A stretch of 64,000 bases of DNA, taken from the NCBI GenBank assembly GCA_001821935.1, contig MHOU01000003.1, positions 11,873 to 75,872 on the forward strand, read 5' to 3'. The stretch is from Candidatus Staskawiczbacteria bacterium RIFCSPHIGHO2_02_FULL_43_16 (GTDB lineage: Bacteria; Patescibacteriota; Minisyncoccia; Minisyncoccales; Staskawiczbacteraceae). The position numbers were made by a program, and so were the translations under genes. The first letter of the stretch is position 1, and the number at the start of each line of letters is the position of its first letter. This document shows, one piece after another, positions 4,776-48,910 of this stretch. The notes beneath the pieces were generated by a model. The model was not told the origin of the DNA. It saw only the letters and a list, made by a program, of their open reading frames with translations, and did no database searches.

Positions 4776-5145
4776 CGGCTTTGGGAATAACCGGATACTG
4801 TAAGGTCTTGGAGCAACCACTGCTTCCAAAATGTGGGCAGCCGAAGAAAATTCCGGCATCTGCCCTCCTAGTTCGCATAAGCATCTTAACCTTATGGTCT
4901 GGGCATTCTGGGAAAGCCATAACCTCTTTGGGGTTTACTTGTCCACCCATGCTCTTTTCAACGACTTCAATCTGTTCTTTTATCTCTCGGTATAGTTTAA
5001 CGGCACCTTCAACACTTTCTTCATAAAGATTGACCATTATTGATGACCTGATAATTGTGCCATCACTTGCCCGATCTACGGAGTAGTTAACGTGGACTCT
5101 ATTATTTGGATCAAACATATTTTTATTTGATGTATTAAAAAACAC
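4765..5145 (-). CDS. Hypothetical protein with a degenerate topoisomerase-type zinc-ribbon-like C-terminus
   Basis: C-terminal CPDH…FFGCPHFGSSGC resembles the CPxCG…FxGCSxYPxC zinc-ribbon pattern. Otherwise unassigned. Confidence 0.4.
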   Translation of the reverse strand: MFFNTSNKNMFDPNNRVHVNYSVDRASDGTIIRSSIMVNLYEESVEGAVKLYREIKEQIEVVEKSMGGQVNPKEVMAFPECPDHKVKMLMRTRRADAGIFFGCPHFGSSGCSKTLQYPVIPKADVR

Positions 5146-5186: not shown

Positions 5187-5387
5187 CTATTTTGAACCGC
5201 CAGCCGGTTCACCTTGAACCGGCAGACGAGTAATAGTAATAACTCCTTGGCCGTATTTGACTTCGAACTTACTGCCAATAGAGAAATCTGCCTTGAGCAA
5301 AAAACTATTGGTAATCCTTAGCATAGGTTTGCTGTTATCATCCCCGGGAGCACGTGTGATGGTCATAACTCTTTTTATGTTATTCAT
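5187..5387 (-). CDS. AbrB/MazE/SpoVT-family (swapped-hairpin) DNA-binding protein
   Basis: 66 aa. MLRITNSFLLKADFSIGSKFEVKYGQGVITITRL fits the looped-hinge beta-barrel pattern of AbrB/MazE antitoxins and regulators. Confidence 0.5.
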   Translation of the reverse strand: MNNIKRVMTITRAPGDDNSKPMLRITNSFLLKADFSIGSKFEVKYGQGVITITRLPVQGEPAGGSK

Positions 5388-5608
5388 AATAATGTGAATG
5401 CTTGTGCCAGGCTGGTTCGACTAGCCAGCCAAAGAATATCAGTGGCGTTTTATTTAAAAATATTCCACTTATAAAAGTTGGTAGACCATGGTTGTGCTGA
5501 TGAATGAGTATTGGGCGATAGACATTGGGGGGTCGTTTAGCTAACTTCAAGGCGTGACTTGAGCCTCAGACTGAGAGGAACCGAGAGACGGTTATTTCAC
5601 CACAGGGA

Positions 5609-6619: not shown

Positions 6620-9154
6620 ATGTATATAAATTATAGCACAATTCTGTGCGAAGAGATAGAGTTGAGTGAGTGGGTAAATATCAAAATAATTAACCCTTTT
6701 CTTGGCTTTAAAGAAACCTATGGACTTTCCGAGCCAAGCGATGAATACTGGGTAAATTGGCGTCTTGAGATGCGAAATGCCAAAAAAACAAAAGTGCCCT
6801 ATATGCCAAATGGGAAACTAGCAAGCACTACTGATCCGGTGACTTGGAGTACCTTTGACGAAGTAATAGCCGCACAAAGCCGTTTTAGCGGCATTGGTAT
6901 CGTGTTCACAGGTCTATTACTGGGAATAGATGTGGACAAATGCCTTGAAGGCAGGGATATAACGCACGAACAAAGGAAAAAGATAGCAGAACTTATCACA
7001 AGGGCAAATACTTATACAGAAGTATCACCATCTGGAACTGGTTTGCATCTTTTTCTCAAACTTACTGCTCCGCTTAATCTTAAGGCAAATCGCCATGGTA
7101 ATTTTGAGGCTTATACTTTAGGAAGGTACTTCACTGTGACGCAAAACTTCTACCAAGATATAAAGTCTGTTAGGCTAGTGACACCAGAGGAAGCTGAATC
7201 TTTGCTTTCAATCATTGGTTATCCTTGGGAAAAAGGCGAACAGCCCAAAAATACACTCCATAGCCCAACAAGCAAAGAGATTGAATTAAGCGACGATGTG
7301 GTTCTTCAAAAAATGTTTGCTTCTAAGAATGGTTCAGCTATCAAGTTGTTATACAACGGAGATACTTCAGAATTTGATGGAGATGAATCAGTGGCTGATG
7401 CTTCTCTCTGTTCACACCTTGCTTTTTGGGTCGGCAAGGATGCTTCTCGCATAGAATCTTTGTGGCTTGCTTCTCCGCTTGGCAACAGAGAAAAGACACA
7501 ACAGCGCAAGGATTACCGAGACCACACCGTCGAATTTGCTATACAACACTGTACAGGAGTATACGATAATTCGGTTTCTATGGAAAAAATAGAGGGAATG
7601 CTAGAGCAAATACCTGTTGACATGTCAAAATTGAAATTAATGGAGGTGTTGAGTCCCATTTTTCAGGCTCTTATCCATATTGAAAGGACAACTGCAGAAT
7701 TGTTCATTCTGAACAATATTAAAGAACACTTCAGTATCACCAAGGCGGACGCCCAGAAGTATATTCCCCATTTGAATAACCTAAGGTTAAAATCACTGGC
7801 GGCAGACAAAGAGGAGAGGGAAAAGGAAGAAAAACTACCACTGCTGGCTAGGGACATAGACTACGGAGAGGTATTTGATGCTATATCTGAAATAGGTATT
7901 ATCCATGAAAGTACGCTAAAAATAATCACAGCGGTCATTATCTCTTCCCAATTACGATGCAATCCTCCTTTGTGGTTATTTCTCATTGGAGTACCATCGT
8001 CGTTAAAAACCGAGCTTGTTGGTTTATTTAGCGCGACAGATGAAGTCTATACATTGGATACGCTTACAGAGAATGCGTTTGCTTCTGGGTTTGTGCCAAA
8101 AGACGGTAAAGAACCACAGGATTTACTGCCACTCATTGATAACAAGGCATTTATCATAAAGGATCTGAACACTCTCTTTTCATTGAACGAGGAAACGGTA
8201 AAAAAGATCCTTGGCGATCTGACAAGCATCTTTGACGGTAAATTCGAAAAGTTCACAGCCACAAGGGGACTGATTAGCTATAGCTCGTTGTTTTCAATGA
8301 TCGGATGCATCACGCCTTCAATTTTGATTAAACACTATAACTATGCGACACAGCTTGGCCCACGATTTTTGTTCCTGCGACTTCCGGAATTAGACAGTGA
8401 TGAAATGAACCAAAGTTTAGAGAACTTTTGGAATGAGAAAAACAGGAAAGAAAAAATCATAAAAACACGGCAAATAGTGTCCTCCTATTGCACTCAACTC
8501 ATCAAAAAAATCAAACAATACGAACCTGCTGATGAAACTAAGGAAATCCAGGATAAAATTAGTGATATTTCTCTGCTTATTTGCCGGGCTCGTGGCATTG
8601 CTATTACGCAAAAATCAAGTTTTACAGACGAAAAAACAGGGAAAAAGGTGGAATATTATGAAATAAATAACTTTCAGGTAGAGCAGCCCTGGAGAATAAT
8701 CAATCAGCTAAAGTCCTTACTTCAAATCTTGAGTTTTATCAACGGAAACGCTGGTGTGGGCGAAGATGAAATAAATGTTATCAGGCCTGTCATCCTATCA
8801 ACTATGCCGGTAGATAGGTCAGAAGTAATGGGTATTCTTGTGAAAACATGCGGACGTTCGGCAACTGAAATTGGCAAACAAGTCGGAAAATCAGGGAAAA
8901 CCGCGCGTAGAACCCTAAAAGAGTTAGAAGCACTTGGGCTTGTTGACTGGTATCAAGACCCAAGCAATACATCAGGAAAAGCCGCCAAATTATACTTTGT
9001 CTCTGATAAATTTGCTTCTATCCTTCAGGCACCCATGCCCTCCCCGGAGTGTCTGTCCCTTTCAAAGATTGTGGCTGACGTGAATACGGCGATTTTTGAC
9101 GAAGCAGAGTACGAAATAGAAGATACTAACCCCCAACTTCCTGTGAATGGTTAA
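6620..9154 (+). CDS. Prim-pol (archaeo-eukaryotic primase-fold) domain protein, with a primase C-terminal-like region, a degenerate P-loop segment and a C-terminal winged-helix; putative replicase of the element
   Basis: AEP motifs hhhDVD (GIDVDKC) and sxSGxGxH (VSPSGTGLHLFLK). A PriCT-like block follows (DASLCSHLAFWVGKDASRIESLWLASPLGNREKTQQRKDY). Then a GxxxxxKT-like segment (GVPSSLKTE). C-terminal HTH-like region GRSATEIGKQVGKSGKTARRTLKELEALGLV. Confidence 0.7.
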   Translation: MYINYSTILCEEIELSEWVNIKIINPFLGFKETYGLSEPSDEYWVNWRLEMRNAKKTKVPYMPNGKLASTTDPVTWSTFDEVIAAQSRFSGIGIVFTGLLLGIDVDKCLEGRDITHEQRKKIAELITRANTYTEVSPSGTGLHLFLKLTAPLNLKANRHGNFEAYTLGRYFTVTQNFYQDIKSVRLVTPEEAESLLSIIGYPWEKGEQPKNTLHSPTSKEIELSDDVVLQKMFASKNGSAIKLLYNGDTSEFDGDESVADASLCSHLAFWVGKDASRIESLWLASPLGNREKTQQRKDYRDHTVEFAIQHCTGVYDNSVSMEKIEGMLEQIPVDMSKLKLMEVLSPIFQALIHIERTTAELFILNNIKEHFSITKADAQKYIPHLNNLRLKSLAADKEEREKEEKLPLLARDIDYGEVFDAISEIGIIHESTLKIITAVIISSQLRCNPPLWLFLIGVPSSLKTELVGLFSATDEVYTLDTLTENAFASGFVPKDGKEPQDLLPLIDNKAFIIKDLNTLFSLNEETVKKILGDLTSIFDGKFEKFTATRGLISYSSLFSMIGCITPSILIKHYNYATQLGPRFLFLRLPELDSDEMNQSLENFWNEKNRKEKIIKTRQIVSSYCTQLIKKIKQYEPADETKEIQDKISDISLLICRARGIAITQKSSFTDEKTGKKVEYYEINNFQVEQPWRIINQLKSLLQILSFINGNAGVGEDEINVIRPVILSTMPVDRSEVMGILVKTCGRSATEIGKQVGKSGKTARRTLKELEALGLVDWYQDPSNTSGKAAKLYFVSDKFASILQAPMPSPECLSLSKIVADVNTAIFDEAEYEIEDTNPQLPVNG

Positions 9155-18106: not shown

Positions 18107-19438
18107 CTATTTTGCCTCGCCCGTTTGGCTACGGCCAAGGGAAAAACTCTCTAATTTTTCAAACACTTTCTCGTTAAACTTCGCTCCTTTACTATACTCC
18201 CTTAACTGCCCCATGTCAATTTTCTCTAACTGCTCTTTACTGTAATTTTTGACGGCTTTGTTCATCTCCTCTTGCAACTCCGCCGTTGAAACTTCCACCT
18301 TTTCAGCCTTGCCAACCTGGCGCAATACCAAAAAATCTTTAATGCGCTTTTCCGCTTCTAACTTGAAAGAATCTTTCACTTCTTGTTCGGTTTTTTTCAC
18401 GTTCTGCAAGTATTGCTCCAGTGTCATCTTAAACCGGCTAATTACGCCATTTTTCATGTCTTCAAATAACCTTTCCTGTTCATACTGGACCATTTTTTCT
18501 GGTAGTTCAAACTTAACTTTTTCAGCAATTTTGTTTAATAATTCACCGCGTTTGCGTTGTTTTTCGGTTTCTTGTTTTTCAGCTGTAATGCCTTCTTTTA
18601 AATTTTCTTTCAAAGCCACCAGGCTCTCAAATACGCCTAGCGCTTTAGCAAAATCATCATTAATCTCCTGTAATTCCATGGTTTGCACGGAAATCATTTT
18701 CACCTTAAAATCTCCCATCTTACCACCAAGGTTATTTATAGCATTGTCCGGAAACTTAGCGGAAAATTCTTTTTGGTCACCCGCCTTCATTCCCAAAACA
18801 TTATCTTCAAAGTCTTTCAAAAACCCTCCTTCACCCAAAATAAACCGGTCCTTGACGGTTTTACCTTCATTGATATCTTTGTTAGTATATTCAATTTCCA
18901 CAAAGTTTTTATTTGCGGCCGGGGCGTCAACTTGGGAAAACTTGGCCCGGCTTTTTTGCAAATATTCCAGCGTTTCCTGGATTTCCTTGTCATACACCGC
19001 CACTTCATTGCTTTTTATACCCTTGGCAATTTCTTTGTAATCAGGCAATTCAATTTCCGGCAACACGGCAACGGTTACTTTAAACAAAAAGGGATTTCCT
19101 TTGGCAATTTTTACAATTTGCACATCCGGGTCGCCAATGGGTTCCAGTTTATTTTCTGCCACAAATTTGCTATACGTTTTTTTCACCGCCAATTCTCCCG
19201 CTTCCATCAGCACATTTTCCGCCCCCGCCTTTTTCTCAACCATTTCCAAAGGCACCTGCCCCTGCCTAAAACCATCCATTTTCACATGGCCTTTTAAATG
19301 TTCCAGTGCCTTTTGCCAATATTCCGCAAACTCTTTTTCATCTAACTCAAAGTTAATCTCTACTTGCGACTTTGGCAATTTTTTTAGTTCTGCTTTCATG
19401 AATTTATGGAGCGAAGCTAAGGGAGCCTTGGCGAACAC
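18107..19438 (-). CDS. tig: Trigger factor
   Basis: N-terminal ribosome-binding region with the GFRQGQVP motif, PPIase-like middle, C-terminal arm. tig-clpP synteny. The C-terminus ends …SLGRSQTGEAK (see the in-frame repeat finding). Confidence 0.85.
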   Translation of the reverse strand: MFAKAPLASLHKFMKAELKKLPKSQVEINFELDEKEFAEYWQKALEHLKGHVKMDGFRQGQVPLEMVEKKAGAENVLMEAGELAVKKTYSKFVAENKLEPIGDPDVQIVKIAKGNPFLFKVTVAVLPEIELPDYKEIAKGIKSNEVAVYDKEIQETLEYLQKSRAKFSQVDAPAANKNFVEIEYTNKDINEGKTVKDRFILGEGGFLKDFEDNVLGMKAGDQKEFSAKFPDNAINNLGGKMGDFKVKMISVQTMELQEINDDFAKALGVFESLVALKENLKEGITAEKQETEKQRKRGELLNKIAEKVKFELPEKMVQYEQERLFEDMKNGVISRFKMTLEQYLQNVKKTEQEVKDSFKLEAEKRIKDFLVLRQVGKAEKVEVSTAELQEEMNKAVKNYSKEQLEKIDMGQLREYSKGAKFNEKVFEKLESFSLGRSQTGEAK

Positions 19439-19606
19439 TTATCCCAGACTTTTATTTTTTATAATAAAATGGGATTTGGAAATTCACCTCGAAAATGGGG
19501 TTTGAGGGAGCGTAGCGACACTCAGTTCGCATTTTGTAAAAAATGAGAACATACCATTCCCTTGTGACCCCATTTTCGCTGGATACCTTGCTACGCTTTT
19601 TATTCT

Positions 19607-19930
19607 TTATATATTATCTATCTTTGCCGCCATTATAAAATCATTTTCCGACAACCCGTTTACAAAATGGGTCCAAAGCGTAATTTCCACTTTACTATAA
19701 TTGATTGCAATATCCGGATGATGCCCCTCTTCTTCTGCCAACACGGCTATTTTATTTACAAACTCCATTGCCTTTACAAAATCTTCAAATTTGAATTCTT
19801 TTACAATTTTTTGAGTCTCTAAAAACTCCCATCTCTCTTTCAATTCAGAAAGATAACCTTTAATTTCGTGCTCGCCAAGCAAAACTAATTTATCATGAGG
19901 CAAACATTTCTTGTTAAGTAAATTTTCCAT
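19607..19930 (-). CDS. Pterin-4a-carbinolamine dehydratase (PCD/DCoH family)
   Basis: 107 aa. …EEGHHPDIAINYSKVEITLWTHFVNGLSENDFIMAAKID matches the PCD signature (EGHHPxI…THxxGGLSxxDF). Confidence 0.75.
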   Translation of the reverse strand: MENLLNKKCLPHDKLVLLGEHEIKGYLSELKERWEFLETQKIVKEFKFEDFVKAMEFVNKIAVLAEEEGHHPDIAINYSKVEITLWTHFVNGLSENDFIMAAKIDNI

Positions 19931-20152
19931 AAGTTTATTTGGGGATGTAAAGTATTTAATATGGACGTCGCCTGCCTGCCGGTAGGCAGGGGCGTCTACG
20001 CTATTTTACTCGGTACCGTGAATTTAACGACCGTGAGATTTATGGTACTTTTTATTTAAAATGGTGGCTGTTCCCATTCTGTCCCCATTTTCACTTGCTT
20101 TTTATTATTTCTCAAATACAATTAAATCAGTTCCCCTTCAAAAGGAGGCTTT

Positions 20153-20353
20153 ATGCCAAGCAGACTGACGATTCACTGGTTTGTAGCGATTATACTGATA
20201 ATCGCATTTGCGCTTGTCTATTCAAATCCCTCGGTGGGACAATGGATAGAAGAAATCTTCGGCCAGGGAAGCCGAAATATCCTGGCATTCGCCATCGTTG
20301 TCATCACGGCCATTCTTGCCCTCGCTTTCAACACAAACTGGAGAAAGCAGTAA
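20153..20353 (+). CDS. Small two-helix membrane protein
   Basis: 66 aa with two hydrophobic helices. A terminator follows immediately. Confidence 0.4.
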   Translation: MPSRLTIHWFVAIILIIAFALVYSNPSVGQWIEEIFGQGSRNILAFAIVVITAILALAFNTNWRKQ

Positions 20354-20357
20354 TCGC

Positions 20358-20394
20358 CCAAGCCCAACGACGCGTCGTTGGGCTTCTTTTTTTA
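20358..20394. terminator. Bidirectional rho-independent terminator
   Basis: GCCCAACGACGcgTCGTTGGGCttcttttttt. It also sits at the 3' end of the convergent pyrophosphatase gene. Confidence 0.7.
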
Positions 20395-22422
20395 TACTAA
20401 GAAAGCAACGATCAACAACGCCACGATATTCAACACCTTAATCATAGGATTTATTGCGGGTCCCGCTGTATCCTTATAGGGATCGCCGACGGTATCTCCG
20501 GTAACCGCTGCCTGGTGGGCAAAACTGCCTTTTCCGCCCAGGTTTCCTTCTTCAATGTACTTTTTAGCATTATCCCAAGCGGCGCCTCCAGTGGTCATAG
20601 AAATGCCCACAAAGAGTCCTGTAACAGTAGCTCCAATTAACAATCCCCCCAGTGCTTCAACTCCCAAAAACATACCCACCAAAATTGGGGCAACTACCGG
20701 AATTAATGCTGGAATCATCATTTCTTTAATGGCGGCTTTGGTTACAATATCAACGCACTTTCCGTATTCTGGTTTGACAGTGCCTTCCATTAAACCTTTG
20801 ATGTCGCGAAATTGTCTGCGAACTTCTTCAACCACTTTACCGGCAGTTTTTCCAACCGCACCCATCAAAAAGCTTGCAAACAAGTAGGGAAGCAAACCTC
20901 CAATTAACAAACCAACAATCACTTTTGGGTTAGACAAATCAAATACCAGCATTCCGCCGCCCATCCTGCTTGAAACTTCTTGAGTGTAAGCAGAAAACAA
21001 TACCAAGGCGGCTAAACCAGCCGAAGCAATGGCATAACCTTTGGTTACGGCTTTGGTGGTGTTTCCAACAGCATCAAGGGCATCGGTAATTTTTCTGATT
21101 TCCGGTGGCATTCCACTCATTTCAGCAATTCCACCGGCGTTATCGGTGATTGGGCCATAGGCGTCAACACCAACTACAATTCCTGAAATGGATAACATGC
21201 TGACTACGGCCAGTGCCACTCCGTAAATGCCCGCGAAATAAAAGCTCAGCATGGTTCCGGCGGCAATTAACAAAACCGGGAAAGCGGTTGATTGCATACC
21301 CAAACCAATTCCTCGGATAATGTTGGTGCCATGGCCAGTTTCAGAAGCTTTGGCGATTGAACGCACCGGCGTAAACTTTTTAGAAGTGTAATATTCTGTG
21401 ATAACAAACATTCCAACCGCAATTACCAAACCAACTAAGGTTGATAAGTACAAATTCATAACGGTAATATCTTGGCCTACCATCATTTTGCTGATAAGTG
21501 GATAAAAAGCGATGGCTGAAAGCACCACTGAAACTGCTAAGCCTTTATACATAGAGCCCATGATTGATTTGCTTTTGCCAAGCCTTACAAAGAAGCTTCC
21601 AATGACGCTGGTTAACATTGAAACGCTGGCCAACATTAGTGGCAGTAAAATAAACTGTGGGCTTCTTGGGAATAATAGGGCGCCCAAAATCATAGTGGCT
21701 ATCATGGCAACCGAATAGGTTTCAAAAATGTCTGCGGCCATACCTGCGCAGTCCCCCACATTGTCACCAACCTGGTCAGCAATTGTGGCCGGGTTTCTTG
21801 GATCATCTTCGGGAATGTTTTTTTCAACTTTTCCCACCATGTCGCCTCCCACGTCGGCGGCTTTGGTGTAAATTCCGCCTCCAACTCTGGCAAATACGGA
21901 AATCAAGCTAGCTCCAAAACCTAAACCAATCAAACCTTCAATTCCGGTGGCAAAATAATATCCGGCAACGGCAATCAATCCTAAGCTCACCACCATTAAA
22001 CCGGTAATTAATCCCCCTTTAAATGAAATGTCTAAGGCGTGGTCCATACTGCGTTCAGCGGCTTTAGCAACTCTGGTATTCGCTTGTGTTGAAACAATCA
22101 TACCAATAAACCCTGAAAGTCCTGACAATACTGCTCCCAATAAGAATCCAATGGCTATTTCCCAACCTAAGAAAATCCAAAGCGCTATAAACAAAATTAC
22201 CGCAACCACAGCCACGGTTTTATACTGACGTTTTAAGTAAGACATTGCGCCTTCTTGAATCGCTTGAGTAATAGCAACGGCTTTATCTTTGGCAGCTGGA
22301 GATTTTTGAATCTGCATTACCAAAAACACCACAAACGCGATGGTAAACAACGAAACGATAATTGGGAAATAAGTTATGAGAGCCATGAATTGATGAGCGA
22401 AGCGAGGAAATTCACTTCGCAA
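20392..22422 (-). CDS. hppA: Membrane-bound proton/sodium-translocating pyrophosphatase
   Basis: 676 aa, many TM helices. Signature motifs [18 protein letters not shown] and [18 protein letters not shown]. Confidence 0.9.
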
Positions 22423-22512
22423 ATCAGGCTGAAATTTTTATATATAATATTCAGCTAGGCCTAATTTGCGTTGCGACACCTTACTTGCTATTAATTATTT
22501 TTATTAATTTTA

Positions 22513-23223
22513 TTATTTTGTAATTTTAAACGTGGAAAGTATTCTAGTATTTAAATCTTCTAATTCAAAAAAGTCAGAGTAATCTTTTCTTTTTAATTTC
22601 TCAATGTCTATCTCTTTATTTCCTAATATTGATAATACTATTGATCCATTACCATACTTTATAATCGTTGCGATAGTAGGAGTAAGTGAATAATAGGAAT
22701 AAACATTTTCTTCTTTTATTATATCTGTTTCTTTATAATCTTTTGCTATATATTTGGAATCTACCCTTTCGAAAGACAATGCTTCTACATTCTTTGTATT
22801 CTGATTTAAAACTCTTTGAAAATATACATATCCACCCTTTACTGCAAATGGATCGTTCATTTCACCAGTCACAGCAACATTAAATGGGCTGGGCTCATTG
22901 CACATCTCGCATATATTTAATCTCAAAGAGAACAACCTAATACTATCGTTATCAATATTCTTCTCAAAAAAGACATATGGCGAATCATTATCTTCGATTG
23001 TAAAATATTCTGGATATTTTATTTCAAATTTATAGCCCCCAAAAAATTTATTACTTTCACTTCTATACGTTTTCCAATTGGACATTTCATTTTGAAATTT
23101 TGCATTGTCATTTCGATTTTTGATATTTGCATTTTGCATTATCAAAAAACCCCCGCCAAACAATACTATTGCCGCGACCAGAATAATTAAAATTCCCTTG
23201 GACGTTAAAATTCTTTCTTTCAT
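22513..23223 (-). CDS. Hypothetical membrane-anchored protein
   Basis: N-terminal TM (ILIILVAAIVLFGGGFLIM) then a ~200-aa Asn/Tyr-rich domain. No family recognised. Confidence 0.5.
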   Translation of the reverse strand: MKERILTSKGILIILVAAIVLFGGGFLIMQNANIKNRNDNAKFQNEMSNWKTYRSESNKFFGGYKFEIKYPEYFTIEDNDSPYVFFEKNIDNDSIRLFSLRLNICEMCNEPSPFNVAVTGEMNDPFAVKGGYVYFQRVLNQNTKNVEALSFERVDSKYIAKDYKETDIIKEENVYSYYSLTPTIATIIKYGNGSIVLSILGNKEIDIEKLKRKDYSDFFELEDLNTRILSTFKITK

Positions 23224-23229
23224 TTATTT

Positions 23230-24753
23230 TTAATTTTGAATGTATCTGATGCCGACGTATTCATTGGAAGATATTGTCTGATTTTTAACTACCTGACCTT
23301 TCGCCACGGTGATCCCAGAAAGCCTACCAAGCTGATTTTTCAGTCGTTCATATAATGCCTCTATTTTTTGATCATCGGGAGTATTTATAAAATCTTCTTG
23401 CCCATGACTTATTGCGGCCACCAGGCGAACTTGGCCGGTTTTAAAATCATATTCTTTAATTTTTATCGCGTAAGCACCCGCATCGCCAAAAGTCCATCTC
23501 ATATATAATTTATTTAGAGCGGGATCGTAACCAACGATAGACGGGAAATCAATGTTTTCTGCTAATATTTTCCCCTGTTTTGAAACCAAATCGTACTGCC
23601 AAAGAGTTAATCTGCAATCTGCCATATAATAATTGCAATTTTCCCCAGAAAGATAGTACAAAATATCTTTGTAAATAAAGAAGTCATTTATTACGTCATC
23701 AGGTAACGTGGATTTTTGTGCACGACGAACCCCTGGCAAATCAATACTTTCAATTTGCTTTGACAAAAGATCGATAGAAGAAAGTTGCCCATACAAATCC
23801 ACGAAGTAGGCCTTGTTTCCCACAAGCTGCATTTGAGGCTCAGAGTTACTATACAAGTCAAGGTAAGCCATAACCTCTTTGTCACCGCCTTGATCCTTAA
23901 AAATTAAAACTGTTTTTGTTTTTGCCCATTGCGGATCACCACTGAAGCCCACCGAGTTAAAAATTACTTCTGTTTGAATTAATCCATTTGATTCTGGAGT
24001 AATAGAATACAGCGAACTAGATAAGTTAATTCCACTCGTTAGTAATGCGAGAAAGTCATTCGTACAGTCGCCATCAATAGCTAGTCCGTTTTCATGCAAC
24101 ACCAAACTATTCTGGCTGTCTTTTTGGGGGAAATGATTTATATACACACCAATATTTTTAGTTCCGCCACCATTTTGATTTCTTTGCCAAAAAGAGGTAA
24201 TCCGAAAATAACTGTCTGACAGATAAATATCCTTAGTTTCCTTCTCAAAAAAATCTCGCGTAGATTCATCGAGATGATAATCGTAGTTGCTGCTTAACGC
24301 TTCAGTATCTAGTTTTCCATAAGAAAGCATGCATCCAGAAGAATGTTTTAACTGCAAGGGCATATTTTTGTCGCTTGTGTTAATGGCAGACCATTTTCCA
24401 TTATAATTTATTTTAAATCCATACTCATTATTGGTATATGTTTCCCAGTGGGAAACAATTTTAGCAGTCCTGTAATCTTGGTACATAAAGGTTCCAACTG
24501 CAATAATGGGTAAAAGTATCATGATAATTGCTAAAATCGGAAAAACTTTTTTTTCATTCTCTCTCCGTAATGCGAAAGTTGAAAGAACAAAAGTGGTAAC
24601 TGCAAGAAAGATAAATAAAATAATGAACACCAAGTAGGTAGAAATTTCTACAGAATCAGTGGCACTAAGCGGGGAAGTAAGAGGGAGAACAAAAAACAGA
24701 ACAATGGGAAAGAGAGCAATAGCCAACGCCGTAATCCCTAATTTATTTTTCAT
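23230..24753 (-). CDS. Hypothetical membrane protein with a large extracytoplasmic domain
   Basis: Three to four N-terminal TM helices then a ~400-aa domain. Co-directional with the preceding gene, and both lie downstream of nusA. Confidence 0.5.
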   Translation of the reverse strand: MKNKLGITALAIALFPIVLFFVLPLTSPLSATDSVEISTYLVFIILFIFLAVTTFVLSTFALRRENEKKVFPILAIIMILLPIIAVGTFMYQDYRTAKIVSHWETYTNNEYGFKINYNGKWSAINTSDKNMPLQLKHSSGCMLSYGKLDTEALSSNYDYHLDESTRDFFEKETKDIYLSDSYFRITSFWQRNQNGGGTKNIGVYINHFPQKDSQNSLVLHENGLAIDGDCTNDFLALLTSGINLSSSLYSITPESNGLIQTEVIFNSVGFSGDPQWAKTKTVLIFKDQGGDKEVMAYLDLYSNSEPQMQLVGNKAYFVDLYGQLSSIDLLSKQIESIDLPGVRRAQKSTLPDDVINDFFIYKDILYYLSGENCNYYMADCRLTLWQYDLVSKQGKILAENIDFPSIVGYDPALNKLYMRWTFGDAGAYAIKIKEYDFKTGQVRLVAAISHGQEDFINTPDDQKIEALYERLKNQLGRLSGITVAKGQVVKNQTISSNEYVGIRYIQN

Positions 24754-24770
24754 AAATTATAATTTGTTCT

Positions 24771-26171
24771 TTATTCCGCTGATTTTTCCTCAGCTGGCTT
24801 TTCCTCTACAGAAGTTTCCTCGGCAGGGGACTCTTCCGAAGGCGTGCCTTCGTCCACCGAAGCTTCAGCGGAGGCGGATTCCTCCTCCTTAACTTTTTTT
24901 GCTCTTTTCTTTTTTGCCTCGCCCGTCTGGCTACGGCCAAGGGGCTTTTCCCCAGTAGTAGAATCCATGGATTCACTACGGGGCTGCGCTTCGCTTGCTT
25001 CTTTTGCTTCTTCTCCTTCCGCGGCCTTTGGCTTATCAGCTGTCTTAATATCTATTTTCCAACCGGTTAATTGGGCGGCTAATCTTACATTCCTGCCCTC
25101 TTTTCCAATGGCAAGCGAAAGCTGATCTTCTGGCACAAAAACCGTGGCGGAATTATTTTCTTGAATTTTTACCGCGGCTATTTTAGCGGGGGACAGCGAG
25201 TTACCAATAAACTTTTCCGGATCTTCATTCCAAGCAATCACATCAATTTTTTCTCCGCCCAATTCATTGATGACCGCCATAATGCGCGTTCCGCGCTGGC
25301 CAACACAGCTACCAATTGGATCAATGCGCTCTTCCGTTGAAGCCACTGCCATTTTGGTGCGATAGCCCGGTTCGCGGGCGATGGATTTAATCACCACAAT
25401 TCCACTGGCAATTTCCGGCACTTCAAGTTCAAATAATCGTGAAACCAATTTTGGATATGCGCGGCTCAAAAGCACGGCCGAGCCTTTCGGGGTATCTTCC
25501 ACTTTTACAATGTAAAATTTCAAGCGCTGGCCTTGTTTGTAAAATTCACCGGGAATATGTTCTTCGCGGTTTAAAATGCCCAGGGTTTTGCCAATGTCCA
25601 CCAATACCGTACTACCCTCAATACGCTGAATAATTCCGGAAATAATTTCACCTTCTTTGCTTTTGTATTCGGCGGCAATCACCCCTTTTTCCGCCTCGCG
25701 GATTTTTTGCAAAATCACCTGTTTGGCGGTTTGGGCGGCGATACGACCGTAATCTTGCTTTGAAACCAGGGGAATTTCCAGTTCTTCACCCAGCTTGATA
25801 TCCGGATTTTTTTTCCGGGCCTCGTCAATCATAATGTGCTTTTCCGGGTTAAAAACCACTTTTTTGGGCGCCTCCTGACCTTCTTGCAAACGGTCAAAAT
25901 CTTCGGCCGGCACCAATTTTTGGGCTTTTAATTCTTCAATTTCTTCTGGTGTGTACAACATAGATTCATCAACCACTAATTTTAATTGCCAAAACTGCCC
26001 GTCACCGGACACCTGGTTGAACTTGGCTTTGATTTTTTGCCCCTTTTGCCCGTAATCTTTTTTATAGGCGGTTGCCAAAGCCGCTTCAATCGTTTCTATG
26101 ATTGATTCGGGTGAAATTCCGCGCGCCTCCGCAATTTGGGCCAACGCCCGTTGAAAAGATTTTATGTCCAC
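24771..26171 (-). CDS. nusA: Transcription termination/antitermination factor NusA with an acidic C-terminal extension
   Basis: N-terminal domain, S1-like domain, and KH domains (…PIGSCVGQRGTRIMAVINELGGEKIDVIAWNEDPEKFI…). The C-terminal tail is E/S/A-rich and contains PLGRSQTGEAK. Confidence 0.85.
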   Translation of the reverse strand: MDIKSFQRALAQIAEARGISPESIIETIEAALATAYKKDYGQKGQKIKAKFNQVSGDGQFWQLKLVVDESMLYTPEEIEELKAQKLVPAEDFDRLQEGQEAPKKVVFNPEKHIMIDEARKKNPDIKLGEELEIPLVSKQDYGRIAAQTAKQVILQKIREAEKGVIAAEYKSKEGEIISGIIQRIEGSTVLVDIGKTLGILNREEHIPGEFYKQGQRLKFYIVKVEDTPKGSAVLLSRAYPKLVSRLFELEVPEIASGIVVIKSIAREPGYRTKMAVASTEERIDPIGSCVGQRGTRIMAVINELGGEKIDVIAWNEDPEKFIGNSLSPAKIAAVKIQENNSATVFVPEDQLSLAIGKEGRNVRLAAQLTGWKIDIKTADKPKAAEGEEAKEASEAQPRSESMDSTTGEKPLGRSQTGEAKKKRAKKVKEEESASAEASVDEGTPSEESPAEETSVEEKPAEEKSAE

Positions 26172-26186
26172 AACTTTTGCTCCGCA

Positions 26187-26290
26187 AAAGAAACTCTAAA
26201 TTCTAAACACTAAACTCTAAACGTCTTAAGGCTTAGAATTTTGGATTTGTTTAGGATTTAGGGTTTCGGATTTAGGATTTTAAAAAAAGA
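26187..26290. repeat. Inverted arrays of telomere-like heptamers (CYCTAAA x4 then TTTAGGN x4)
   Basis: aaactctaaattctaaacactaaactctaaacg … tttggatttgtttaggatttagggtttcggatttaggatttt. An imperfect long palindrome built from heptad repeats, between yraN and nusA. Confidence 0.6.
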
Positions 26291-26312
26291 TGTCCGCTTT
26301 CAGACGGACATG
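26283..26312 (-). terminator. Rho-independent terminator downstream of yraN (minus strand)
   Basis: Plus strand aaaaaaagATGTCCGctttcagaCGGACAT. On the minus strand the hairpin is followed by a T-run. Confidence 0.55.
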
Positions 26313-26363
26313 AGTTAATTCAGCATTAATTAATTATGAGTTTAGCAGAATGCAAGTCCGATG

Positions 26364-26762
26364 TCAAACATCTTGGACTGCATTAGGGAAATAATGGAGC
26401 TTGGCATTGCGGGTGGCTTCATTGACCAAAATGCCAATGACGTCAATTTGATAGGGGATATCTTGGGGATAGTTGTTTTTTTGCAGCCAAATCTGGGCCA
26501 TATTGCGCAACTTGCGCTGTTTTTTATAATCCACCCGCTCTTCGGGGAAAAAATCCTGCTGGCCGTTGCCCATAATGGCTTTCACTTCAACAAAATGGAT
26601 GGTTTTATCAAAGCGCGCAAAAAGCTTTTGCTTTTTGCGCGCGATAATATCAATTTCTCCAAACTTTATACTATAGTTTTTCCCCAAAATCTTAAACCCC
26701 TTCTTCACAAGATACTCACAGGCTATGCGCTCACCAAGCGCGCCTAATTCTTTAGTGGTCAT
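26364..26762 (-). CDS. yraN: YraN-family (UPF0102) endonuclease
   Basis: 132 aa. …GERIACEYLVKKGFKILGKNYSIKFGEIDIIARKK…HFVEVKA… matches the UPF0102 pattern. Confidence 0.8.
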   Translation of the reverse strand: MTTKELGALGERIACEYLVKKGFKILGKNYSIKFGEIDIIARKKQKLFARFDKTIHFVEVKAIMGNGQQDFFPEERVDYKKQRKLRNMAQIWLQKNNYPQDIPYQIDVIGILVNEATRNAKLHYFPNAVQDV

Positions 26763-27787
26763 TTCGCCGGATTAGTGATGGGCGGATAGAGCTGCTTATC
26801 AATGGTCCGGTCAAAACAGACCCGGCCGGCGGCATGGTCAAAGTTTTGCGAATACGCGTCGTAATAACCTGCCGGAACCGGCGCAGTTTTGGGATTATTG
26901 GCCATAGCCGCGGTTTCAAAGGTGGCACATAGTTCAAAACTCAAATTAGTCGCATCTTTGACAGTATACTCATATGGCAATTTAGTTTTGGGGTCAACGG
27001 GTACGGCGTAGCCGGAAATCGGATCATTTAAATCTTTCAAGTTGGTTGGCAATGCCTGTTTGCGCTGCCAATAATTGACTACTTGGTATTGAATACCCTG
27101 TAAATCATTAACGCGCTGCTGGTCAACCCTTGCCAAACCGGCGTTCATGGGAGAGCCGATAATAAAGAACGAACCAATAATGGCCAATGCCACCACCAAT
27201 GAAGAAACCCAAGCAAAATATTTGGCTGATGGCGAAGAAATATTCCTTCTGACATCATCTAAATAATAGCCAAAGATCGCCCCGGCTACCATGATAATGG
27301 AAAGAGCTTTTAAAATAAACCGTATGGTAACTTCGCCGTTTAAAAAGGTGTTAATGACAAACACCAGGTCACCAATGATGACCAGCGCAGCCACAAACAA
27401 GGTTAAGTAAATGAGCCACTTGCGGATTTTGCTTTCGCGCACGGCCGATTCTTTGGCGTAAATCCGGTTTAAAAACCAGGAAGACAAAATAAAAATTGGG
27501 AAAACAATAATGAGCGATGAAACGGCAAATCGCATAGACCCGGTTACACCCATGTAGCCATAATTTATAATATCCGGGAAAAAATAATTTAATGCTTCGT
27601 GGCACAGGGTAATAAAACTGATGGCTGACCAGTACAGGGTTACCATGGCCAGAAGATGCAAAAACACATCACGGGGCAAGTTTCTTTTTACCTCGCCCAT
27701 AGGCTCGCCCGTCGGGCTATGCCCCAAGGGGCTACGGCCGAGGGGGCCAGCTGTTAATTCGTTACTTGGAGTGATATTATTTTCCAT
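26759..27787 (-). CDS. Hypothetical polytopic membrane protein with a Pro/Gly-rich N-terminus
   Basis: About six TM helices. N-terminus …GPLGRSPLGHSPTGEPMGE… is encoded by a diverged, duplicated copy of the in-frame repeat. Confidence 0.55.
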   Translation of the reverse strand: MENNITPSNELTAGPLGRSPLGHSPTGEPMGEVKRNLPRDVFLHLLAMVTLYWSAISFITLCHEALNYFFPDIINYGYMGVTGSMRFAVSSLIIVFPIFILSSWFLNRIYAKESAVRESKIRKWLIYLTLFVAALVIIGDLVFVINTFLNGEVTIRFILKALSIIMVAGAIFGYYLDDVRRNISSPSAKYFAWVSSLVVALAIIGSFFIIGSPMNAGLARVDQQRVNDLQGIQYQVVNYWQRKQALPTNLKDLNDPISGYAVPVDPKTKLPYEYTVKDATNLSFELCATFETAAMANNPKTAPVPAGYYDAYSQNFDHAAGRVCFDRTIDKQLYPPITNPAK

Positions 27788-38119: not shown

Positions 38120-38989
38120 TTGTCAAATCTGCTATACTCAACCCAAATGAATCTTCTTCCCCCATCACAAATCAAAGAATTATTGGCAAGCCATGGCGCC
38201 GTGCCCTCAAAACGGCTGGGGCAGAATTTTTTAATAGACAAAAATGCGCTGGCCAAGGTTGTGGAAGCGGCAAATTTACAACCAACTGACGTTATTTTAG
38301 AAATTGGCCCCGGTATCGGCACCCTAACCCAAGCCCTGGCTCAAAAAGTGAGAAAGGTGATTGCCATAGAGAAAGATGCCGGCATGGTGGATATATTGGG
38401 GAAAACCCTGAAAGACTTTAAGAATATTGAAATTGTCCAAGGCGATGCCTTAAAACTAGACCCTAGCCCCTATACCCTAGCCCCTTACAAGGTTATCGCC
38501 AACATTCCCTATTATATTACATCTCCATTGATTAGAAAATTTTTGGAAACACCAAGGCAACCGGAACACATGGTGCTCATGCTGCAAAAAGAAGTGGCTC
38601 AACGCATCGTGGCTCGCCCGCCAGACATGAGTATTTTAGCAGTTTCAGTGCAATTTTATGCGGAGGCTAAAATAGTTTCTTACGTTTCAAAAGGCTGTTT
38701 TTGGCCGGTGCCGAATGTGGATTCTGCCATCATTGCCATAAGATCGCGGAATGACGCAAAACCAAGCGGAAAAATTAACACTGATTTATTCTTTAGAATT
38801 GTAAGGGCCGGCTTTTCCCAACCAAGAAAGCAACTAGGTGGGAATTTGGTAAAAGAATTAAAGGGGAATAAAAAGGGGATAACCGAATGGCTTTTAGCCA
38901 ATAATATTCAACCCACCCAGCGGGCAGAGACCTTGAGCCTCAAAGACTGGCAAAACCTAACCAAAAATTCACCCTTAGGTGAAAATTGA
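38120..38989 (+). CDS. rsmA: 16S rRNA (adenine1518/1519-N6)-dimethyltransferase
   Basis: LGQNFLIDKNALAKVV… and SAM-binding EIGPGIGTLTQAL. Length as for KsgA. Confidence 0.85.
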   Translation: MSNLLYSTQMNLLPPSQIKELLASHGAVPSKRLGQNFLIDKNALAKVVEAANLQPTDVILEIGPGIGTLTQALAQKVRKVIAIEKDAGMVDILGKTLKDFKNIEIVQGDALKLDPSPYTLAPYKVIANIPYYITSPLIRKFLETPRQPEHMVLMLQKEVAQRIVARPPDMSILAVSVQFYAEAKIVSYVSKGCFWPVPNVDSAIIAIRSRNDAKPSGKINTDLFFRIVRAGFSQPRKQLGGNLVKELKGNKKGITEWLLANNIQPTQRAETLSLKDWQNLTKNSPLGEN

Positions 38990-45131: not shown

Positions 45132-45312
45132 TTAAATGTTCTGCCCCAAGCAGAGTTTAATGGGAAAAGATAGTTTTCAAAGGACGACCCAGAACATCTG
45201 GGTTAATACTTAACCATATCATACTCATACGCCCTTGTCAATAGTGAATAATCTGTGCGCTTGCCAAGTGTTTTAATATGCTATAATTATCTATTAATTA
45301 GGAAATAATAAC

Positions 45313-45352
45313 GTAGCCGCCTAGACCCTAACCCCTAGACCCTACACCCTAA
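45313..45352. repeat. CTAGACCCTAACCCCTAGACCCTAYACCCTAA-family intergenic element (copy 1)
   Basis: cgcctagaccctaacccctagaccctacaccctaagc. Related copies at 48858-48900 (inverted), 49266-49306, and 52025-52062 (inverted, adjoining (TTTAGGG)6). Confidence 0.65.
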
Positions 45353-46303: not shown

Positions 46304-46966
46304 ATGGATTCCGCTACACAGGATTTTTTAGAAATCAAAGACATCCGCGAGGGGGTTTTGGTGTTGAAAAATAACGGCTTGCGGGGAATTTTGATGGTTT
46401 CTTCCTTGAATTTCGCCTTAAAATCTTCCGAAGAACAGTCTTCCATTATTTACGCCTATCAGAGTTTTTTAAATTCCCTGGATTTTTCCTGCCAAATTGT
46501 CATCCAATCACGCAATGTCAACATCACCCCCTATTTGGACACGGTTAAAAACTTGGCAGAAAAACAAACCAATGAATTGCTGAAAGTGCAAACTTCTTCA
46601 TACGCGGATTTTATCAAAGAACTGGTACAGGGTGATAACATCATGACCAAAAGTTTTTACGTGGTGGTCCCCTACACCTTGACCGAGGCGTTAGGGGCGG
46701 GGGCGGCCCTTAATAAATCTGGCTTATTTGATATTTTTAAAAAAAATAAAAACAAAAACCAACAGCTGGGCGATGAAGATTTTGAAAAATGCAAAAACCA
46801 GCTGTGGCAAAGGATGGAATTCTTGGCTATGGGACTAAAACGCTGCGGGCTGGATGTCATGCCCCTGACCACCCCGGAACTGATTGAACTGTTTTGGGCC
46901 ATGCACCACCCCGACCAAGCAGAAGTGGGATATTACCCGGAAATACTGCCTGAATTATTGAAATAA
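46304..46966 (+). CDS. Hypothetical protein resembling the N-terminal region of VirB4-type ATPases (no NTPase motifs)
   Basis: LEIKDIREGVLVLKNNGLRGILMVSSLNFALKSSEEQSSIIYAYQSFLNSL… parallels the N-terminus of the next gene (IINIRDIIAPPYIGIGQDSIKLGEK…FFIFSYPRYLNTGWLSPAINL…). Confidence 0.45.
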   Translation: MDSATQDFLEIKDIREGVLVLKNNGLRGILMVSSLNFALKSSEEQSSIIYAYQSFLNSLDFSCQIVIQSRNVNITPYLDTVKNLAEKQTNELLKVQTSSYADFIKELVQGDNIMTKSFYVVVPYTLTEALGAGAALNKSGLFDIFKKNKNKNQQLGDEDFEKCKNQLWQRMEFLAMGLKRCGLDVMPLTTPELIELFWAMHHPDQAEVGYYPEILPELLK

Positions 46967-46968
46967 AT

Positions 46969-47077
46969 TTTTAATTTCCAATTTTTAAATAATTTTTTAA
47001 TGTTAAAATTTATAAAATACCACGCGCTTAAAAATTAGCAAATTAAAATATTATTTAAAAATTGGAAATTAAAAATT
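46969..47077. repeat. AT-rich palindromic element, core TAATTTCCAATTTTTAAATAAT with its inverted copy ~55 nt away; second locus at 60433..60500
   Basis: tttttaatttccaatttttaaataat … attatttaaaaattggaaattaaaaatt. The same 22-nt core and inverted partner occur at 60433-60500. Confidence 0.65.
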
Positions 47078-47084
47078 AATAGCT

Positions 47085-48872
47085 ATGGCATTTTTTAAGA
47101 AAAAAATTGAAGCTGAAGAAAAGATTTTTGAGCAGGAGACCATCAACATCCGCGACATCATTGCCCCGCCCTACATTGGTATTGGACAGGATTCCATAAA
47201 ACTGGGCGAAAAGATTGCCAAGTCTTTTTTCATCTTTTCGTATCCGCGCTACTTAAACACGGGCTGGCTTTCACCTGCCATCAATTTAAATGTGCCCATG
47301 GACATTTCCTTTTTCATCCACCCAGTTTCCAGCCAACTTATCTTAAAAAAATTACGTTCAAAAATTACCCAGGTGTCTTCAGAATTAATAGAGCGGCAGG
47401 AAAAGGGGTTGATCCGCGATCCCGCTCTTGAAACCGGCTACCAAGACATTGAAAACCTACGGGATAAAATCATCACCGCCCAGGAAAAAATGTTCCGCTT
47501 CGGGTTGTATATTACGGTTTATGAAGATACTCCGGAAAAGTTAAAAGAAACCGAAAGCACCTTCCGGTCTATTTTTGAATCGCGGCTGATTTACATCAAG
47601 CCAGCTATCTTTAAACAAAAAGAGGGCTTTATATCCACCAGCCCTTACGGCATGGATTTGCTGGACGTAAACGTGCCCATGGACACCGAACCGCTTTCCA
47701 CCACCTTCCCATTCGTTTCCTTTGACCTAAGCAGCAATGAAGGCATTTTATACGGCATCAACCGCCACAATAATTCCTTAGTGTTATTTGACCGTTTCAC
47801 GTTAGAGAATGCAAATATGGTTGTCTTCGCTAAATCAGGATCCGGTAAGAGCTACGCCATAAAATTGGAAATTTTGCGCTATTTGATGTGGGGCGTAGAT
47901 GTGATTGTCATTGACCCGGAAAACGAATATGAATTTTTGGCAGACGGGGTGGGGGGTGACTTCTTTAAAATTTCCCTTACTTCGGGCAACCATGTCAACC
48001 CCTTTGACCTACCGGTGCCCGGCCCGGACGACAGCCCCGAAGATATTTTGCGCTCAAACATCATTAACCTGGTGGGGCTGCTGCGCATCATGCTGGGCGG
48101 CTTAACCGCCGAAGAAGACAGTATTTTAGACCAAGCCATCACAGAAACTTACGCCGTACGTGACATTACCCCGCAGAGCGACCCGGCCAAATGGCAGGAG
48201 AACATTCCCATCATGTCTGATTTTGCCGAAGTGTTGGAAAACATGACCGGGGCCGAAAGCCTGGCCCGACGCCTTAAAAAATTCACCACCGGAACCTTTG
48301 GCGGATTCTTCAACCAAAGGTCAAACCTTAAAATTGATAAGAATTTTATTGTCTTTGGCATTCGTGACATGGAAGAATCGCTCAAAACCATCGCCCTGTA
48401 TATCATTATGCGCTATGTTTGGAACATTGTGCGCACTAATTTGAAAAAGCGAATTTTGGTGGTGGACGAGGCTTGGTGGCTAATGCAATCTGAAGATGGC
48501 GCTTCATTTTTGTTTGGTCTGGTCAAGCGCGGCCGCAAATATTGGCTGGGGGTTACCACCATCACCCAAGACATTGAAGACTTCATGCGCTCAAGCTACG
48601 GCAAAGCCATTATTACTAATTCTTCACTGCAACTATTACTTAAACAATCTCCGGCGGCCATTGAAATACTGCAAAAAACCTTTGACCTGACCGAACAGGA
48701 AAAAATGCTTTTGACCGAGGCTTCGGTAGGCGAAGGGCTCTTTTTTGCCGGCAAAAAACATGTCTTTATGAGTGTTAAAGCCAGCTACACCGAAGACCAG
48801 ATTATTACCACCAACCCCGGTGAAGTGGAAAAAATCAAAGAAGCGCGAAGACAATTAGGGTCTAGGGGATAG
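47085..48872 (+). CDS. VirB4/TrbE/PrgJ-family type IV secretion ATPase
   Basis: VirB4-type N-terminus. Walker A VVFAKSGSGKSYAIK. Walker B RILVVDEAWWLM. C-terminal …GKKHVFMSV…. 595 aa. Confidence 0.75.
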   Translation: MAFFKKKIEAEEKIFEQETINIRDIIAPPYIGIGQDSIKLGEKIAKSFFIFSYPRYLNTGWLSPAINLNVPMDISFFIHPVSSQLILKKLRSKITQVSSELIERQEKGLIRDPALETGYQDIENLRDKIITAQEKMFRFGLYITVYEDTPEKLKETESTFRSIFESRLIYIKPAIFKQKEGFISTSPYGMDLLDVNVPMDTEPLSTTFPFVSFDLSSNEGILYGINRHNNSLVLFDRFTLENANMVVFAKSGSGKSYAIKLEILRYLMWGVDVIVIDPENEYEFLADGVGGDFFKISLTSGNHVNPFDLPVPGPDDSPEDILRSNIINLVGLLRIMLGGLTAEEDSILDQAITETYAVRDITPQSDPAKWQENIPIMSDFAEVLENMTGAESLARRLKKFTTGTFGGFFNQRSNLKIDKNFIVFGIRDMEESLKTIALYIIMRYVWNIVRTNLKKRILVVDEAWWLMQSEDGASFLFGLVKRGRKYWLGVTTITQDIEDFMRSSYGKAIITNSSLQLLLKQSPAAIEILQKTFDLTEQEKMLLTEASVGEGLFFAGKKHVFMSVKASYTEDQIITTNPGEVEKIKEARRQLGSRG

Positions 48873-48900
48873 GGTTTAGGGTCTAGTAAAACCAAAAACG
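48858..48900. repeat. CTAGACCCTAA-family element (inverted copy), left flank of the four-helix-bundle cassette
   Basis: aattagggtctaggggatagggtttagggtctagtaaaac. Confidence 0.6.
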
Positions 48901-48910
48901 CAACATCCTG

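Follow-up and report, generated by a model that had tools for sequence, protein, structure and literature searches.

The mobile GC clusters of mitochondrial genomes (yeast, other fungi and algae) are short GC-rich palindromes that spread in AT-rich, reduced genomes; they occasionally lie in frame inside protein genes (e.g. var1) and encode no transposase. Repetitive extragenic palindromes (REPs) of the GTAG type are linked to REP-associated tyrosine (RAYT) transposases, and intragenic REPs add residues to proteins, sometimes supplying a stop codon (Di Nocera et al. 2013, PMC3733652). Selfish repeats that insert in frame are classically represented by the Rickettsia palindromic elements (RPEs; Ogata et al. 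2000) which, as far as the summary in PMC10969869 describes them, are palindromes of about 100-150 bp that insert in frame into unrelated housekeeping genes and add 30-50 residues in the form of a conserved, benign peptide. Here we describe a much shorter palindromic element, a 28-nt unit that adds exactly 27 nt per insertion, three copies of which are present in a 64-kb stretch (64,000 nt; hereafter the window) of contig MHOU01000003.1 (positions 11,873 to 75,872; assembly GCA_001821935.1) of Candidatus Staskawiczbacteria bacterium RIFCSPHIGHO2_02_FULL_43_16. They are members of a family, not described before, of very small GC-rich palindromic repeats that is present in many Parcubacteria genomes.

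Three insertions in the window

The window was searched with the plus-strand pattern GCCTCGCCCGTYTGGCTACGGCCAAGGG, and 100 dinucleotide-preserving shuffles served as a control. There were two exact matches in the window (18114-18141 and 24916-24943) and none in the shuffles. A scan allowing up to 7 edits revealed one extra copy, diverged and duplicated, at approximately 27702-27730, which gives three copies per 64 kb. The motif reported in the initial annotation is therefore real and non-random; the peptides, the strand and the common frame were given correctly, while the coordinates were displaced by 1 nt in tig and by 11 nt in nusA. The copies and their host genes are as follows:

18107-19438, minus strand: tig, encoding trigger factor; host of copy 1 (Pfam Trigger_N/Trigger_C on homologues; 120 homologues)
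18114-18141, minus strand: copy 1, 28 nt, CCCTTGGCCGTAGCCAAACGGGCGAGGC, exact match; directly before the last tig codon, adding LGRSQTGEA
24771-26171, minus strand: nusA; host of copy 2 (Pfam NusA_N and KH on the same gene in contigs L006 and L007; alignment with a relative)
24916-24943, minus strand: copy 2, CCCTTGGCCGTAGCCAGACGGGCGAGGC, exact match; in the charged C-terminal tail of nusA, adding LGRSQTGEA
26759-27787, minus strand: gene of a DUF5671 membrane protein; host of copy 3 (Pfam DUF5671, residues 40-174; alignments with contig L004)
27690-27744, minus strand: copy 3, a nested composite of 55 nt reading PLGRSPLGHSPTGEPMGE (sequence parse)

Each of the three copies is carried in the coding (minus) strand of a long open reading frame (ORF), and all share one orientation and one frame, (P)LGRS..TGE, as initially proposed. 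The unit found in tig and nusA is the coding-strand 28-mer CCCTTGGCCGTAGCCA(A/G)ACGGGCGAGGC; the two copies are distinguished by a single position of the 28, and both bear the rare subfamily signature T5, A16. The C-terminus of Tig, ...ESFSLGRSQTGEAK, is parsed as ...ESFS-LGRSQTGEA-K, and the NusA tail, ...GEKPLGRSQTGEAKKKR..., has the insert placed as ...GEKP-LGRSQTGEA-KKKR.... The outer unit of the composite is divided into two parts, CCCTCGGCCGTAGC (27731-27744) and CTATGGGCGAGGT (27690-27702), between which the inner unit, CCCTTGGGGCATAGCCCGACGGGCGAGC, occupies positions 27703-27730. The DUF5671 ORF starts MENNITPSNELTAG-PLGRSPLGHSPTGEPMGE-VKRNLPRD and contains ...TAGPLGRSPLGHSPTGEPMGEVKR....

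Comparison with orthologues revealed that these segments are insertions. Homologues bearing Staskawiczbacteria, Parcubacteria and Patescibacteria names place the organism in Parcubacteria. None of the 119 other Tig homologues has the LG(R/H)S segment, and among the 40 closest ones listed the majority, also at 81-89% identity, terminate in ...LE(S/N)FSK*. Direct comparison was made with L004, a 17-kb syntenic contig from a relative with an 89% identical Tig. All three copies are missing from these 17 kb, where even a tolerance of 7 mismatches gave no match to the motif: the aligned NusA reads EKP|KKRKKK without an insert, and the DUF5671 protein starts MEIVKRNLPRD, its ATG aligning with an ATG within the element of the window. 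Because of this start codon, copy 3 may be located in a 5′ leader instead of an N-terminal extension of the protein, so the placement in protein termini or tails described in the initial annotation holds for Tig and NusA and is uncertain for the third copy. The vertical conservation of the residues that the annotation had considered as the opposite case is not seen.

In silico removal of positions 1-27 of the 28-mer converted the end of Tig to ...VFEKLESFSK* and the NusA tail to ...TTGEKPKKKRAKK (EKPKKK restored), with the frame undisturbed in both genes. Since a 27-nt deletion restores the ancestral endings, the net gain amounts to 27 nt precisely, and a C is present at each junction. Identical insertions recur in L006-L012, seven contigs that other samples provided for the same species. 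The copies in tig and nusA are attributed to recent intragenomic spread, given their single difference in 28 positions, their common rare subfamily and their absence from the relative with an 89% identical Tig.

Some features of the host genes were also noted. The listed tig ORF begins with a GTG located 13 codons upstream of the ATG (MKAELKK) used by all orthologues, whose N-termini begin MK(T/A)ELKK; the true start is probably the ATG at 19399, the GTG adding 13 spurious residues (19399-19438). The acidic tail of NusA in the window is about 30 residues longer than that of L004. Between nusA and an H+-pyrophosphatase gene there are two hypothetical genes (22513-24753, minus strand; 236 and 507 aa) that are absent from L004 and whose sizes change from strain to strain (498/208 aa in L007 and L008).

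A dispersed 28-nt family in Parcubacteria

A strict pattern, CCCTTGGNNNNTAGCCNNACGGGCGAG, gave no match in species-representative genomes, being too specific to the subfamily of the window. It had three matches in metagenome contigs, one of which came from the same organism. In the only other organism matched (L002/L003), an unrelated CAP-domain protein carries a near-identical 55-nt composite in its linker. The looser pattern GGSCRTAGCCNNACGGGCGAG matched at least 119 stretches in species-representative genomes, nearly all of them from Patescibacteria, where about 17 matches would be expected by chance (an estimate based on 36 bits and 1.2e12 positions). About nine matches in GC-rich Proteobacteria and Actinobacteria look like chance, and the remainder come from metagenome-assembled genomes (MAGs) of Patescibacteria, assigned to Nomura-, Kaiser-, Adler-, Giovannoni-, Staskawicz- and Uhrbacteria, Paceibacterota and Minisyncoccia. 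The labels 'Saccharibacteria' and 'Gammaproteobacteria' on some TPA_asm MAGs were distrusted, as the dihydrofolate reductase (DHFR) of one such locus, L077, is 80-89% identical to Nomurabacteria/Paceibacterota proteins. The safe statement of the host range is Parcubacteria (Paceibacteria). The 28-mer is thus not limited to three copies without a pattern, and its dispersal, together with the orthologues lacking the segment and the ancestral reading restored by removal of 27 nt, bears out the suggestion in the initial annotation of a tiny in-frame-inserting REP-like repeat ('nano-MITE') tolerated in protein tails.

Alignment of 121 copies yielded a sharply bounded 28-nt consensus, CCCTCGGSCRTAGCCCTACGGGCGAGSC, with random flanks; positions 1-5 and 27-28, which lie beyond the search pattern, are also conserved. 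The ends read CCCTC and GAGSC. The element has a GC content of 75%, the host loci one of 43% on average. The copies of the window represent a minor subfamily (T5, A16, A/G17), found also in L037, L088, L119, L094, L048 and L041. Family loci were sampled as 8-kb windows. Four such pieces of the 813-kb Paceibacterota contig JBAZVG010000001.1 contained six pattern or near-consensus copies (L023, L040 with two, L114 and L124), and about ten further copies were found in the 0.95 Mb of fetched loci.

A scan of 2.9 million viral contigs yielded one match, attributable to chance, in a GC-rich contig; the element itself is absent from them. Rfam covered only tRNAs in eight element-bearing loci and left the element uncovered in the 17-29 kb part of the window, even at E<=10. 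Two low-sensitivity peptide searches returned a single protein, P0121 (query: a 57-aa concatenate of peptide variants), and three low-complexity repeat proteins (exhaustive phmmer with the 40-aa N-terminus), respectively. Literature searches for the peptide or DNA strings gave no occurrence in the library covered, and those combining Parcubacteria or Patescibacteria with REP, RAYT or MITE (miniature inverted-repeat transposable element) found no connecting paper.

A variant, CCCCTCTGGGCGTAGCCCAACGGGCGAGCCTGAG, with extended conserved flanks was observed in L031, L062, L075, L085, L109, L112, L116 and L125 (GC 49-59%) and in L038, L076 and L107. Its hosts are GC-richer MAGs labelled 'uncultured bacterium', Neomarinimicrobiota and Edwardsbacteria, so Parcubacteria may not be the limit for the family or for a related one.

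Most copies, 85 of approximately 117, are inside ORFs of at least 150 aa, where they occur in four frames and in both orientations, antisense included; others lie outside genes. One frame, LG(R/H)S(P/Q)TGE(A/P), accounts for 52 of the 85 ORF insertions, a count slightly inflated by a few orthologous groups (binomial p=2e-12 against one quarter). The consensus has a TAG stop in two of its six frames, and the favoured frame specifies the most hydrophilic peptide, rich in Gly, Pro and Ser; selection acting after insertion would consequently be sufficient to explain the bias. There is a modest excess of insertions in the terminal tenths of the proteins (21/68, p=0.02). The hosts identified by Pfam are mutually unrelated: LepA (inside the G domain), UvrB, MurC, SecF, PepA, a ComM-like Mg-chelatase, a MiaB-like enzyme, an HI0933-like flavoprotein, a CAP-domain protein and DHFR. 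RNase R, CarB and aminopeptidase N were recognized by eye. Some copies adjoin tRNA genes or lie between them (L027, L069, L090 and L127), filling the tRNA spacer in L027.

One tandem pair with a 27-nt period was found (L041), and nested copies are present in at least ten loci, in some of which the orientation is opposite (L092, L111). Copies also reside inside other, longer palindromic repeats (L015, L117, L056, L100 and L102). There the 28-mer forms the loop of a composite repeat (e.g. L015 ~2650-2760, L117 ~5400-5520), the longer palindromes being of the forms GTCATTTCGAGCG…CGGGATGACAA and CTGAGCGAGAGCGAAGGATCCGAC…GCATGGCTCAGGGTGGGAC. A CRISPR repeat was dropped as a candidate, since arrays are absent and the tandem pair has no spacer. 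The flanks were examined for a target motif or a target-site duplication, and neither was found; there is just a weak T/A preference.

Three folds were scored on 32 distinct variants:

simple hairpin CCUCG-G-CCRUA-GCCC-UACGG-G-CGAGG: 83% of cells paired, no covariation
fold 7-9/26-28 plus 13-16/20-23: 92% of cells paired, covariation at pair 8-27 (C-G/G-C)
TTGGC/GCCAA stem: 65% of cells paired, no covariation; holds in the subfamily of the window only

The last of these, initially described as present in every copy, is perfect in the tig copy only. Pair 8-27 is C-G in 74 copies and G-C in 39; as the only pair to covary, it may do no more than distinguish two subfamilies. In their sequence context, single copies folded only slightly better than shuffles (z -1.4 to -2.0).

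The clearest record of filled and empty sites was obtained for DHFR, in which the element splits the conserved ES|IG into ES-LGRSPTGEP-IG. Among the 120 best homologues, 13 are filled. Filled alleles (L077, L136, L021, L047 and L131) align base for base with the empty alleles L134 and L135, which read GA(G/A)T|CTATCGGCAAA, leaving a 27-nt gap at the empty site GA(A/G)T|CTATCGG; L077/L134 and L136/L135 are filled/empty sister pairs. With the insert masked, 8 of the 13 filled proteins were nearest to an insertion-free neighbour (81-90% identity) and the other five to a filled allele, and a neighbour-joining tree implied at least ten changes of state. With such a distribution, this one site must have gained the element several times, lost it precisely several times, or both. 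Six filled alleles were retrieved by protein similarity and not by DNA pattern; the element is 95.7% identical among them and its flanks 73.8%, so the copies either postdate the genes or are under sequence constraint.

In DHFR the target, TCTATCGGCAAACC, is similar to the right arm of the element, CCTACGGGCGAGCC, the reconstructed nusA target AGC|CAAA matches the subfamily centre TAGC|CAAA, and nested copies are located at the centre of the outer copy. These three observations suggest a preference for sites that mimic the middle of the element. Two further DHFR genes, in L143 (501-992) and L144 (107-595), encode ESLG in place of ESIG, and their TCC CTC GGA and TCT CTC GGC match the first bases of the element. 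They could be footprints of loss, i.e. of deletion between TCGG repeats 27 nt apart; an A-to-C point mutation is an equally good explanation.

Relationship to known repeats and possible origin

The element resembles GTAG-type REPs, which are likewise 20-40 nt GC-rich imperfect palindromes, non-coding by origin and dispersed, sometimes nested, dimeric or intragenic, patchy between related strains and provided with a G/ATAG tetranucleotide; the two folds of its 28-nt consensus that pair best have the palindromic character of a REP. However, REPs number tens to thousands per genome and are mostly extragenic, downstream of genes, whereas our element is present in a handful of copies and is mostly intragenic. 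The GTAG (or CGTC) of a REP is placed at one end, outside the stem, while the (G/A)TAG of the element is central (positions 10-13), with its complement CTAC at 16-19. The fixed net size of 27 nt and the same sequence across a class-level clade also distinguish it from REPs, and no REPtron (a REP-flanked RAYT) equivalent was found within the 8-kb windows.

The element shares with RPEs the selfish, palindromic nature, the in-frame insertion into unrelated housekeeping genes, the conserved, benign peptide and the small, AT-rich, host-dependent genomes of the carriers; as described in PMC10969869, the hosts of RPEs are Rickettsia and not Parcubacteria, the sequences are unrelated, and RPEs are about five times longer than our 27-28 nt and nine residues. 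MITEs are similar in being non-autonomous, in dyad symmetry, in nested insertion and in presence varying between relatives. They are 50-500 bp long, whereas the element is far smaller, its whole unit being one imperfect palindrome without separate terminal inverted repeats. Its single C common to both junctions could be a 1-nt target-site duplication, indistinguishable from a terminal base, and no parent insertion sequence (IS) was found among the clustered neighbouring ORFs. Mitochondrial GC clusters differ in that they are organellar, usually 30-60 bp long, mostly intergenic and species-specific in sequence. The family thus works like REPs, RPEs and GC clusters, yet departs from REPs in several defining respects.

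We consider it probable that the family consists of non-autonomous, REP-like mobile micro-elements dispersed in Parcubacteria, with a net length of 27 nt that leaves the reading frame intact. A conserved 28-nt unit would be inserted with one terminal C common with the target, adding 27 nt (9 codons), so that the frame could not shift. The element would enter coding and non-coding DNA in either orientation and would prefer targets resembling its own centre or right arm, giving rise to nested copies and to a DHFR site struck again and again. Selection would retain insertions in tolerant places (termini, linkers and loops) and favour the one frame encoding a hydrophilic, flexible peptide, (P)LG(R/H)S(P/Q)TGE(A/P). 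We infer that the spread is transposition-like and catalysed in trans; the favoured, as yet unproven, candidate for the mobiliser is an HUH/Y1 (RAYT-like) enzyme recognising a single-strand hairpin.

Several points weigh against this interpretation. Clustering of 1477 neighbouring ORFs from 107 loci revealed housekeeping families only, with no transposase or parent IS. A tblastn search with E. coli RayT and a Pfam scan detected a Y1_Tnp gene at L071:5076-5840 (Pfam E=3.4e-8) and a fragment in L022, neither of which has a flanking element within the 8-kb window. The copy number is low for a REP-type repeat, and there is no presence/absence polymorphism among the same-species contigs L006-L012. 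The polyphyly of the filled DHFRs rests on a short protein, a neighbour-joining tree and a list biased by an insertion-bearing query. Finally, selfish repeats do not usually stay nearly identical between lineages as divergent as these, and the uniformity of the 28-mer could reflect function instead.

Two side observations concern possible mobilisers. In two loci (L052 247-577 and L127 136-536) a copy has a small gene for a GIY-YIG nuclease no more than 20 nt away; two loci are too few to mean anything, and the adjacency is probably coincidental, although these proteins remain candidate trans-acting nucleases. Another GC-rich palindrome, GGGGGACATCGGAAGTCCCCC, was noted upstream of the Y1_Tnp gene of L071 (a Patescibacteria MAG) and in frame inside it (5072-5101 and 5303-5335; …SGDIGSPPILD…), an indication that in-frame palindromic micro-repeats of several families are present in these genomes.

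We offer more tentatively the idea that the element represents a distinct class of frame-neutral mobile DNA, a 27-nt hairpin unit which a trans-acting enzyme conserved in Parcubacteria actively inserts, and possibly also precisely removes, at targets resembling the centre of the unit, or else a hairpin maintained at the nucleotide level for a host function. Active insertion in trans or a function of the hairpin would explain why the element is ~96% identical while the genes are ~74% identical, as well as the recurrent codon boundary in DHFR. The same disparity in identity is what would be expected of a cis-acting nucleic-acid signal, such as an RNA processing or stability hairpin or a protein-binding site, kept by purifying selection on nucleotides, recruited in many places and tolerated, not selfish, where it falls in ORFs. 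The covarying positions 8/27 and the well-paired fold that uses them, the copies filling tRNA spacers and the one sequence found across many Parcubacteria lineages agree with such a signal, but it is unlikely in view of the patchy presence among close orthologues, the insertion in both orientations and four frames of unrelated genes at no constant position, the nested and tandem copies, and an RNA record without an Rfam match and with a single covarying pair that may separate subfamilies.

No dedicated enzyme would be needed if the copies arose by templated insertion during replication or repair (template switching or gene conversion primed by microhomology of the target with a copy already present), with the palindrome promoting the switch. 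The similarity of the DHFR and nusA targets to parts of the element, the lack of a nearby transposase and the low copy number fit this scheme; exact boundaries with a constant 27 nt at dozens of independent sites, a left junction without conserved microhomology and one 28-nt unit in many genomes do not, and we regard it as distinctly doubtful.

A DNA-uptake sequence (DUS) or uptake signal sequence (USS) in DNA-scavenging bacteria, or a 28-bp Xer/dif-like site of the 11-6-11 type, would account for the length, the imperfect dyad symmetry and the occurrence in related genomes. Uptake sequences such as the Haemophilus USS are known to show a frame bias inside genes, which the intragenic bias of the element resembles. 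They occur at about one copy per kb and are over-represented genome-wide, a density orders of magnitude above the three copies per 64 kb of the window or the six copies in four 8-kb pieces of the 813-kb contig, so that the uptake function suggested in the initial annotation is very improbable. The absence of the element from viral contigs also speaks against a recombination or uptake signal, and dif is a single intergenic site near the terminus that the element, with its many intragenic copies per genome, matches in length and dyad symmetry only.

The shared peptide tag, also proposed at the outset, finds some support in the common frame and peptide of the three window copies and of 52 of the 85 family members. 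A vertically inherited functional motif (tag or linker) is nevertheless scarcely credible: it is refuted by the orthologues without the segment, the unrelated proteins share nucleotide identity beyond the residues, and identical DNA is also found in antisense orientation, in the remaining frames and at intergenic positions.

Other features of the window and significance of the element

Heptamer-like repeats, TTAGGGT / CTAGACCCTAACCCC, were noted at 48855-48886, 49263-49303, 38455-38485, 45312-45352, 51979-52056 and 26251-26297. At 51979-52020 six tandem TTAGGGT units are followed by an inverted copy, and one inverted pair flanks a small ORF (~48900-49260, plus strand) that resembles, by eye, the four-helix-bundle '23S rRNA intervening-sequence' protein. 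These repeats may be a second, cassette-like family. An AT-rich inverted pair of 45 nt, 98% complementary, is located 61 kb apart (1842-1886 and 63246-63290), and related AT-rich palindromes (AAATTTTTAATTTCCAATTTTTAAAT) are present at two other intergenic sites (46963-47080 and 60401-60508). The 844-aa ORF at 6620-9154 (plus strand) contains an NrS-1-type primase-polymerase helix-bundle domain (PF22763, detected on the same gene in L006); since its neighbours are small unannotated ORFs and tRNA genes, this region may be an integrated element.

The 28-nt family indicates that even the smallest, most streamlined bacterial genomes, those of the candidate phyla radiation (CPR)/Parcubacteria, carry a spreading repeat, one that adds nine residues to core enzymes (trigger factor, NusA, DHFR, LepA, UvrB, MurC and others) without disabling them. 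As each event adds exactly 27 nt of near-invariant sequence, the element is easily recognised. It is useful as a marker of recent insertion or loss and for strain tracking in metagenomes, and also for correcting annotations with spurious N-terminal extensions or odd 'low-complexity' tails. It likewise poses a mechanistic puzzle, namely what mobilises a 27-nt unit and why its sequence is so well conserved.

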